A stretch of DNA of 25,367 bases from an uncultured bacterium (GTDB lineage: Bacteria > Chlamydiota > Chlamydiia > Chlamydiales > FEN-1388): NCBI GenBank assembly GCA_964406915.1, contig CAYOTQ010000001.1:1-25367 (forward strand), written 5' to 3'. Below are positions 18,942 to 19,287 of this stretch, piece after piece. The notes below the pieces were generated by a model that saw only the letters and a program-made list of their open reading frames with translations, did no database searches and was not told the DNA's origin. Position 1 is the first letter of the stretch, and every line of letters begins with the position of its first letter. Position numbers and translations under genes: made by a program.

Positions 18942-19287
18942 ATGTCAGTTCAAATTCCTATTCACGCACATAGACATTCTAAAACTGTCGCCACCACAAC
19001 ATGTGATGAGTGTACGATCTTTTTGACAAAAGGAAGACTGCTGTTTAATTTCGTGCGGCCATATTTTTCATTCAGCATGTCGACCAACAGACAAGGACCC
19101 CGATTGTCCAGCATGTGACAAAGAGAGGGAGAGGACGCGGAATGTAGGTCTACTTTCAGGAGACGCTCATTCTTTCATTGGCAGCCAAGTGACAGCTGCC
19201 GTAAAAAAGCTCCTTACTAACCCCGACTTATGTTTGAAATTCAATGTCTGCGTATGTTATGCACAACTAACAGAGAGGTGTTTATGA
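18942..19287 (+). pseudogene. RING-H2 (C3H2C3) finger protein disrupted by a +1 frameshift
   Basis: AGGA RBS and ATG 18942; CDEC in frame A; after removing one base at 19028-19033, CGHIFHSAC-x8-CPAC follows; ends at TGA 19285-19287. Confidence 0.85.

Follow-up and report, generated by a model that had tools for sequence, protein, structure and literature searches.

A frame-broken RING-H2 coding sequence in a variable island of an environmental Chlamydiota genome

The stretch of DNA analysed here, which we call the window, comprises the first 25,367 nucleotides (nt) of contig CAYOTQ010000001.1 from an uncultured Chlamydiota bacterium. Between its positions 18942 and 19287, on the plus strand, it carries a coding sequence for a eukaryote-type RING-H2 zinc finger that is split between two reading frames. 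We read this sequence, with a probability of about 0.6, as the remnant of a small (about 114 amino acids, aa) RING-H2 effector gene that was recently inactivated. The initial annotation of this DNA had described a hidden gene for a RING-H2 E3 ubiquitin ligase, split by a +1 frameshift. The split RING-H2 coding sequence stands, as judged from Pfam and PDB matches and from an intact homologue, P0005. A functional hidden gene or an active E3 ligase is not supported, given the broken frame, the lack of a recoding signal, a decayed neighbouring gene and the variable island in which all of this lies.

Results

Two half-frames join into one RING-H2 protein

The ATG at 18942 (plus strand) starts a frame-0 open reading frame (ORF) of 58 aa with its stop at 19118. 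It reads MSVQIPIHAHRHSKTVATTTCDECTIFLTK up to the frame break and GRLL...SSM beyond it (in longer form, MSVQIPIHAHRHSKTVATTTCDECTIFLTKGRLL...SSM), and what looks like a Shine-Dalgarno sequence, AGGAAA (18929..18934, plus strand), lies 7 nt 5' of the start. The +1 frame contains a TGA at 19024-19026 and is then open from 19027 to a second TGA at 19285-19287; from 19027 it translates as QKEDCCLISCGHIFHSACRPTDKDPDCPACDK...ERCL (in full, QKEDCCLISCGHIFHSACRPTDKDPDCPACDKERERTRNVGLLSGDAHSFIGSQVTAAVKKLLTNPDLCLKFNVCVCYAQLTERCL). Because of the TGA at 19024-19026, the shift from one frame to the other must lie 3' of that codon. The break site, ACAAAAGG, spans 19026..19033 on the plus strand, a base more than the 19027-19033 first assigned to it. 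Deletion of any single base in 19028-19033, an A4 run followed by GG, fuses the two halves into a 114-aa protein, and one base lost, or two gained, between 19027 and about 19053 joins them as well.

This one-base repair yields exactly the 114-aa sequence proposed in the initial annotation, with all eight zinc ligands where that annotation had put them. The ligand codons are C21 (19002-04), C24 (19011-13), C38 (19054-56), H40 (19060-62), H43 (19069-71), C46 (19078-80), C55 (19105-07) and C58 (19114-16). The 5' half of the gene (18942..19031, plus strand) comprises codons 1-30 in frame 0, the frame with the best codon-usage score here, and supplies C21 and C24. The 3' half (19033..19287, plus strand) comprises codons 31-114 and the stop in the +1 frame, and supplies the six ligands C38-C58 and two predicted helices. 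The finger proper, with C3H2C3 ligands and a predicted cross-brace fold as judged from Pfam, PDB sequence search, AlphaFold2 (AF2) and Foldseek, occupies 19002..19116 on the plus strand and is cut by the frame break.

As assembled, there is no unbroken frame from start to stop of the kind that a functional gene requires: frame 0 runs out of the finger at codon 31. Of the finger, the 58-aa product contains no more than the first CxxC, and therefore the sequence in this form cannot make a RING finger. The +1 half, for its part, has no ATG, GTG or TTG before 19189 and so can never show up in an ORF list. The statement that neither half appears in such a list is true at the default cut-off of 60 aa; lowering it to 20 aa brings in the first half, and the second, having no start codon, is still missing.

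Family, sequence and structure matches are those of a RING-H2 domain

After frame repair, and only then, the protein follows the eight-ligand RING-H2 pattern C-x2-C-x(9-39)-C-x(1-3)-H-x(2-3)-H-x2-C-x(4-48)-C-x2-C. Its actual spacing is C21-x2-C24, then C38-x-H40-x2-H43-x2-C46-x8-C55-x2-C58, and all eight ligands are invariant when it is aligned with P0005 and with 13 (alignment A3) or 15 (alignment A2) other RING-H2 domains. The repaired protein matched the Pfam family zf-RING_5 (PF14634) with an E-value of 5e-5 and 23.6 bits over profile positions 2-43 of 43, and zf-RING_2 (PF13639) with an E-value of 0.015 and 16.0 bits. The latter profile had been put forward at the outset as a check; it gave a match that did not reach its gathering score. 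The unrepaired +1 half alone scored 23.8 bits against zf-RING_5 (E 4.5e-5, again under the gathering score), so the RING signal is not produced by the repair.

Comparison with proteins of known structure gave the same picture. The best single-sequence match in the PDB was the RING-H2 domain of gp78/AMFR (E 0.005), in an alignment that crosses the break. With a two-member profile, built from the repaired protein and P0005, 34 of 34 PDB matches at E < 0.1 were RING E3 domains, including those of ZNRF3, BARD1, RNF38, Arkadia, RNF126, AMFR, RLIM, RNF13, RNF4, HRD1 and TRIM21. An AF2 model had a confidence (pLDDT) of 86-92 over residues 21-60 and placed helices at about residues 56-69 and 75-92; its input was a 15-row alignment of RING domains, and the fold test is thus not fully independent. 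Foldseek ranked Arkadia, RNF165, gp78, TRAF6 and RNF12 first among PDB structures, with a root-mean-square deviation of 2-3 Å over about 45 columns. A PHD finger was rejected on the ligands: positions 4 and 5 are His-His (C3H2C3), not those of a C4HC3 finger.

Judged by these comparisons, the RING-H2 identification is sound. The eukaryotic type proposed initially is upheld by the zf-RING_5 and zf-RING_2 matches and by RING E3s being the only PDB sequence matches, as well as by the leading fold matches and the model confidence over the finger.

An intact relative spans both halves

An exhaustive HMMER scan of 1.84 billion representative proteins, with a cut-off of E <= 1e-3, returned seven matches (P0001-P0007). 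One of them, P0005, is an intact 92-aa ORF on a 5.5-kb contig in an NCBI record. It is 36% identical to the repaired protein over residues 17-91, with an E-value of 2e-4 library-wide and 3e-12 pairwise, and the similarity runs 30 residues past the finger. Its ligands are arranged as CDxC-x14-CxHxxHxxC-x8-CPAC, with 14 residues between ligands 2 and 3 as against 13 in the window protein. The two proteins share C-x-H-x-F-H-S-x-C-x-P, the 8-residue loop, DCPAC and a similar helix after the finger. P0005 has a precomputed PF14634 hit of 26.8 bits, compared with a gathering threshold of 27.9, and matches Prok-RING_4 (PF14447) weakly (E 0.005). The initial annotation had staked the joined protein on homologues keeping the CDEC half and the zinc ligands; P0005 spans both halves and keeps all eight. 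It is the key support for joining them, because in P0005 the same architecture exists as one plain ORF.

The other six matches were set aside. P0001 is a repeat-driven false match, and P0002, P0003, P0004, P0006 and P0007 are generic RING-H2 or RING-HC proteins; P0002 has nine tandem RING-H2 domains and comes from a eukaryote-like contig that also bears RFC and eIF5B-type genes. The second-best match of the exhaustive search is at 6001-9172 of a 151-kb contig (L003), which encodes a protein of 880 aa with nine RING-H2 domains in tandem and, after it, a RING protein of 102 aa; with its RFC-like and eIF5B-like neighbours, this contig has a eukaryotic or giant-virus-like look.

Further searches did not extend the family. 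A word-index homologue search with the repaired protein found nothing, and the same kind of search with the two-member profile found P0005 only. A scan of genome contigs with P0005 returned no relatives. A scan of metagenomes gave only two AT-rich eukaryotic (protist-like) RING-H2 genes, L001 and L002, which we rejected as family members since their similarity is generic to RING domains. Nothing was found in a scan of viral contigs, nor by tblastn and megablast against plasmids. In the protein, metagenome and viral collections searched there is no closer orthologue than P0005, and the nearest matches outside the two-member family (L001, L002 and P0002) are eukaryotic.

The coding signal exceeds chance

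One explanation dispenses with a gene altogether: the cysteines and histidines would form a chance pattern in non-coding or out-of-frame DNA between a toxin–antitoxin (TA) module and a 226-aa ORF. The Pfam scores below gathering thresholds, the weak codon-usage signal, the single homologue and the larger search space that frame repair creates would all fit such a pattern. The statistics of the window speak against it. A RING regular expression that allowed one indel repair matched once on both strands of the window, at this site, whereas 24 Markov-2 shuffles of the window gave one loose match (about 0.04 per shuffled window) and none with the strict C-x-H-x2-H form (0/24). The open +1 frame, which lacks a start, extends over 86 codons, a length equalled in 0.4% of segment shuffles (p about 0.004). 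Codon usage favours frame 0 up to the break and the +1 frame from there on, though its signal is weak. Every PDB sequence match is a RING, RINGs lead the structure matches, and the resemblance to P0005 continues for those 30 residues beyond the finger. The stop of the RING frame also overlaps the ATG of the next ORF (ATGA, 19284-19287), which is preceded by its own GAGAGG; this is a typical coupled gene junction. The chance explanation is largely refuted and in our estimate very improbable: the split sequence is a coding remnant.

Origin of the frame break

A pseudogene is the simplest reading because no recoding signal is present, the neighbouring toxin gene carries a nonsense mutation, and the surrounding island is variable. 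The gene would have been inactivated by a shift of one base between zinc ligands 2 and 3: translation from the ATG at 18942 would leave the finger after K30 and stop at 19118, and no RING would form. The lesion looks recent, because no stop has yet arisen in the +1 frame ahead of the ATGA junction.

The nearest sign of decay is in the TA module just upstream. Its ParD-like antitoxin gene (18322..18588, plus strand) is intact, and its YafQ-like toxin gene (18589..18858, plus strand) contains an in-frame TAG at 18634-18636. This TAG is a substitution, not an indel, and so represents real decay 300 nt from the RING break. It falls at the Leu of a K-L-A-x-K-R motif that we take to be the one of Escherichia coli YafQ. 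By its sequence, ParD/YafQ is a decayed, toxin-dead TA module.

The break could instead be an error of assembly or consensus, or a minority allele fixed in a metagenome consensus, with the gene intact and the 114-aa RING-H2 protein made. We consider this unlikely, though several features would suit it: the +1 frame stays open over its 86 start-less codons, its stop and the ATG of the next ORF overlap, no other damage is seen in the RING gene, the contig is a single 28,162-bp record of the kind expected for a metagenome-assembled genome (MAG), and the break lies within a short A4/G2 run. However, homopolymers of A7-A8 and T7-T8 inside intact conserved genes (ptsI, dnaJ and large ORFs) are all in frame, whereas the break occurs at only A4/G2; because the A8/T8 runs in conserved genes stay in frame, the assembly is not prone to homopolymer indels. 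A homopolymer error would moreover not account for the nonsense codon of the adjacent toxin gene. Both lesions are confined to the dispensable island, while all housekeeping genes of the window are intact. We infer a lesion of biological origin and not a fault of assembly.

A full RING could also be made from the sequence as it stands by programmed +1 ribosomal frameshifting, or transcriptional slippage, at ACA-AAA-GGA. In principle, the tRNA-Lys on AAA might move forward by one base and pair with AAG, and the frames meet exactly where the RING requires. The break has no slippery or recoding context, however. Its A site holds neither a stop nor a rare codon (GGA, at 18 per 1000 codons, ranks second among the Gly codons), no prfB-type stimulator resembling a Shine-Dalgarno sequence lies upstream, no RNA structure follows downstream (z = 0.15), and an A4 run is far too short for slippage of RNA polymerase. 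The homologue P0005, in addition, is a plain uninterrupted ORF. With no stimulatory fold, a common codon in the A site and no break in P0005, we rejected programmed frameshifting, whose probability we regard as negligible.

Several observations weigh against the reading of this locus as the remnant of a RING-H2 effector gene. Both Pfam gathering thresholds were missed (23.6 vs 27.9 bits for zf-RING_5, 16.0 vs 27.3 for zf-RING_2), and the N-terminal CxxC adds nothing to the score of the hidden Markov model. In 3.6% of random upstream sequences, chance alone yields a CxxC at legal spacing in another frame that is open to the junction. Foldseek gave weak E-values of about 0.2, which are common for a domain of 40 residues, and some PHD fingers rank further down among its matches. 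The family has two members only, too few for a statistical test of conservation. The source contig is the sole record of this organism, which keeps an assembly indel possible. Three of the four residues usually involved in contact with and activation of ubiquitin-loaded E2 are missing, in the window protein and in P0005 alike. Lastly, a role as an effector and binding to an E2 are suggested only by analogy.

E2-contact residues depart from those of E3 ligases

Eukaryotic RING-H2 E3s such as gp78/AMFR, ZNRF3, RNF38 and Arkadia/RNF165 are the best sequence and structure matches of the window protein, and share with it the C3H2C3 order and spacing, the predicted cross-brace fold, a CGH(I/L)FH..C core and a CP.C end. 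The window protein differs from them in coming from a bacterial gene with a broken frame, in scoring below the Pfam thresholds, and in having a loop of only 8 residues between ligands 6 and 7, no Trp-bearing helix turn, a Glu before ligand 2 and an Asp in place of the linchpin Arg.

These differences concern the positions through which E3s act. Where a hydrophobic residue (Ile, Val or Leu) is expected before ligand 2, and gp78 has Ile, the window protein has Glu23 and P0005 has Gly. Where a Trp or another large hydrophobic residue is expected in the helix after ligand 6, the window protein has the 8 residues of C46-RPTDKDPD-C55; the WL of gp78 aligns to a gap, and the loop of P0005 is equally short. 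The linchpin Arg or Lys expected directly after ligand 8 is Asp59 (followed by Lys60), and Leu in P0005. Only the Pro after ligand 7 is retained (C55-P56-A57-C58, identical in P0005). The alignment thus agrees with the initial annotation, which had remarked on both the absent Trp after ligand 6 and the Asp at the linchpin position.

If the protein is or was made, its intact ancestor might have been a RING-fold zinc module other than an E2-activating E3. It could have served as a decoy or inhibitor of an E2 or as a protein-binding finger, or belonged to the prokaryotic RING-like families, which act with bacterial partners. Glu23, the short segment that lacks the Trp, Asp59 and their counterparts in P0005 would be in keeping with this, as would the weak match of P0005 to Prok-RING_4. 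Atypical contact residues need not abolish activity, however, since SneRING of Simkania negevensis is an active E3 despite an atypical Ser19 at the first contact position (PMC12591485). Pro56 is retained, the strongest family and structure matches are to RING-H2 domains of eukaryotic E3s and not to Prok-RING, and no E1- or E2-like genes were detected among the window ORFs scanned. We regard a non-E3 module as less likely than not, but as a serious alternative.

A more specific proposal combines this with an assembly artefact. The window protein and P0005 would then form an unrecognised family of minimal (about 90-115 aa) chlamydial RING-H2 proteins with a systematically remodelled E2 surface: the residue before ligand 2 would be acidic or small, the central helix cut short and the linchpin Arg missing, and a C-terminal helix would be conserved. 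Proteins of this kind would not be classical E3s, and might trap or inhibit a host E2 or act as non-canonical ligases. We hold this to be quite improbable. A hidden, functional E3 ligase gene is less likely at this locus than a pseudogene.

The locus lies in a variable island of a Chlamydiota genome

The nearest relatives of the DnaJ protein encoded in the window share 63-79% identity with it and include proteins labelled Chlamydiia, Parachlamydiaceae and Waddlia chondrophila, as well as proteins of MAGs labelled Verrucomicrobia. On sequence grounds the source is an environmental Chlamydiota genome, probably a MAG; DnaJ relatives and synteny support a Chlamydia-like host. In three related loci (L004, L005 and L006) the gene order is HPr-PtsI-(HD)-TsaB-S21-DnaJ, followed directly, on the opposite strand, by a metallo-beta-lactamase (MBL)-fold hydrolase gene. 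The MBL-dnaJ junction lies at 5823-5952 in L004 and at 9167-9260 in L005, and in L004 a small ORF and FtsK lie beyond MBL.

The window has the same genes at its two ends. On the left, FtsK ends at 3646 and is followed by a small ORF (3665-4075) and the MBL-fold hydrolase gene (4095-4868); on the right, DnaJ (20082-21260, minus strand) is followed by S21, TsaB, PtsI, HPr and HprK. Between the hydrolase gene and dnaJ, which are adjacent in the relatives, lies an island of about 15 kb (4936..19964) that holds the RING remnant. This segment, from about 4.9 to 20.0 kb, has no counterpart in L004, L005 or L006, and in a fourth related locus, L007, this junction (3398-7378) is occupied by another insert, of 4 kb, that encodes ankyrin-repeat proteins. 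The island contains six orphan ORFs, an arylsulfotransferase, a NUDIX hydrolase, a methyltransferase, ParD/YafQ, the RING remnant and the 226-aa ORF. Because the block is absent in three relatives and replaced by a different insert in L007, the RING remnant is, from these gene orders, in a variable hotspot of accessory, partly eukaryote-like genes. Flanking direct repeats, an integrase and an island-adjacent tRNA were looked for at the island as marks of a mobile element, and none was found.

The 226-aa orphan ORF (19284..19964, plus strand), whose ATG overlaps the RING stop, was probably co-transcribed with the RING gene. It matched no Pfam family and had no relatives in a scan of genome contigs; a single-sequence AF2 model of it had a pLDDT of 42, was unusable and was not used. 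Between the toxin stop and the RING start lies a 26-nt element, TTTGYCTTCACCTGTCTYCAGAAATT (18901..18926, plus strand), with a second copy at 11680..11705 on the minus strand. It includes two TGTCTYCA half-sites 10 nt apart, both copies stand shortly after a stop codon, and 0 matches are expected by chance. None of the seven fetched loci contains the element, which may serve as a common operator or regulatory site.

Two further parts of the island consist of orphan ORFs. At 4936-10214 there are three consecutive ORFs on the plus strand, of 521, 1017 and 210 aa, with no Pfam or NCBIfam match and no counterpart in the related loci. At 10321-15060 there is a block of low GC content (31-39%, compared with about 46% elsewhere) with three ORFs on the minus strand, of 308, 263 and 709 aa, none of which belongs to a Pfam or NCBIfam family; the 308-aa product has a Ser-rich tail and a hydrophobic segment. 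The low-GC block was probably acquired as a separate module of the island.

Outside the island, a tRNA-His (GTG) gene at 1238-1312, the only Rfam match in the window, overlaps the mechanical 5' extension of the FtsK ORF (1235-3646), which means that ftsK must really begin 3' of the tRNA. At the ftsK stop (3633-3664) there is a tandem duplication of 16 nt, in register and with 94% identity (CTGTGAATGAATAGCT / CTATGAATGAATAGCT).

Discussion

The intact ancestor of this gene would have encoded a cross-brace finger with two zincs (residues 21-58) and, behind it, two helices. On the model of SneRING and of other bacterial RING and U-box effectors, the protein would most probably have been delivered into a eukaryotic host, to dock on a ubiquitin E2 or engage the ubiquitin system in some other way. 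The N-terminus of the window protein is polar and rich in Ser and Thr, which is at most suggestive of a type III secretion signal.

RING and U-box domains have already been described in Chlamydiae, and the gene in the window is an apparently dead addition to them. One precedent is SneRING (SNE_A12920) of Simkania negevensis, a proven E3 with UbcH5b and UBE2T in an organism with three further RING candidates; it is a protein of 25 kDa with a C-terminal alpha/beta domain, a His as the third ligand of the first zinc and NxxC for the second (PMC12591485). Both are small proteins of Chlamydia-like bacteria, with a RING-type finger near the N-terminus and atypical E2-contact residues. Unlike SneRING, the window protein has eight canonical C3H2C3 ligands, a helical tail and a disrupted frame. 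The two have no detectable sequence relation, and none of the seven matches of the exhaustive search has the ligand pattern or architecture of SneRING.

The NEX1b family of Neochlamydia combines RING or U-box domains with leucine-rich repeats in large proteins and is massively expanded (Domman et al. 2014, PMC4209131). With it the window gene shares a eukaryotic-like domain related to ubiquitination, an origin in environmental Chlamydiae and a place in lineage-specific gene content with fast turnover. Unlike the NEX1b proteins, however, the window protein is a single stand-alone finger of 114 aa without repeats and with one known relative. Other bacterial effectors of the U-box or RING type include LubX, GobX and RavN of Legionella, NleG of enterohaemorrhagic E. 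coli, and AvrPtoB (summarised in PMC12591485). Their general logic, a secreted mimic of the host's E2-docking domain, may by analogy apply to the window protein too, but they are zinc-free U-boxes or structurally divergent folds and have no sequence similarity to it. Prok-RING_4 proteins, which P0005 weakly matches, are likewise small bacterial proteins with a binuclear treble-clef finger. The window protein, in contrast, has no Prok-RING match, and eukaryotic RING models score higher for both members of its family.

As far as these sequence comparisons go, the distinguishing features here are fully canonical C3H2C3 ligands and a two-member family of very small proteins; the window protein shows no detectable sequence relation to NEX1b or SneRING. 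The main practical value of the finding is for annotation, because this copy is broken and genes of its kind have been described before. Gene callers miss the RING-H2 remnant entirely, and the intact P0005 is the better candidate for biochemistry.

Eukaryote-type ubiquitin-system domains in Chlamydia-like bacteria are marks of host manipulation and of gene transfer from hosts. To the few RING fingers known from bacteria, this locus adds a small RING-H2 protein with canonical ligands and one intact relative, and it shows that such genes are gained and lost in a hotspot between the MBL-hydrolase gene and dnaJ.
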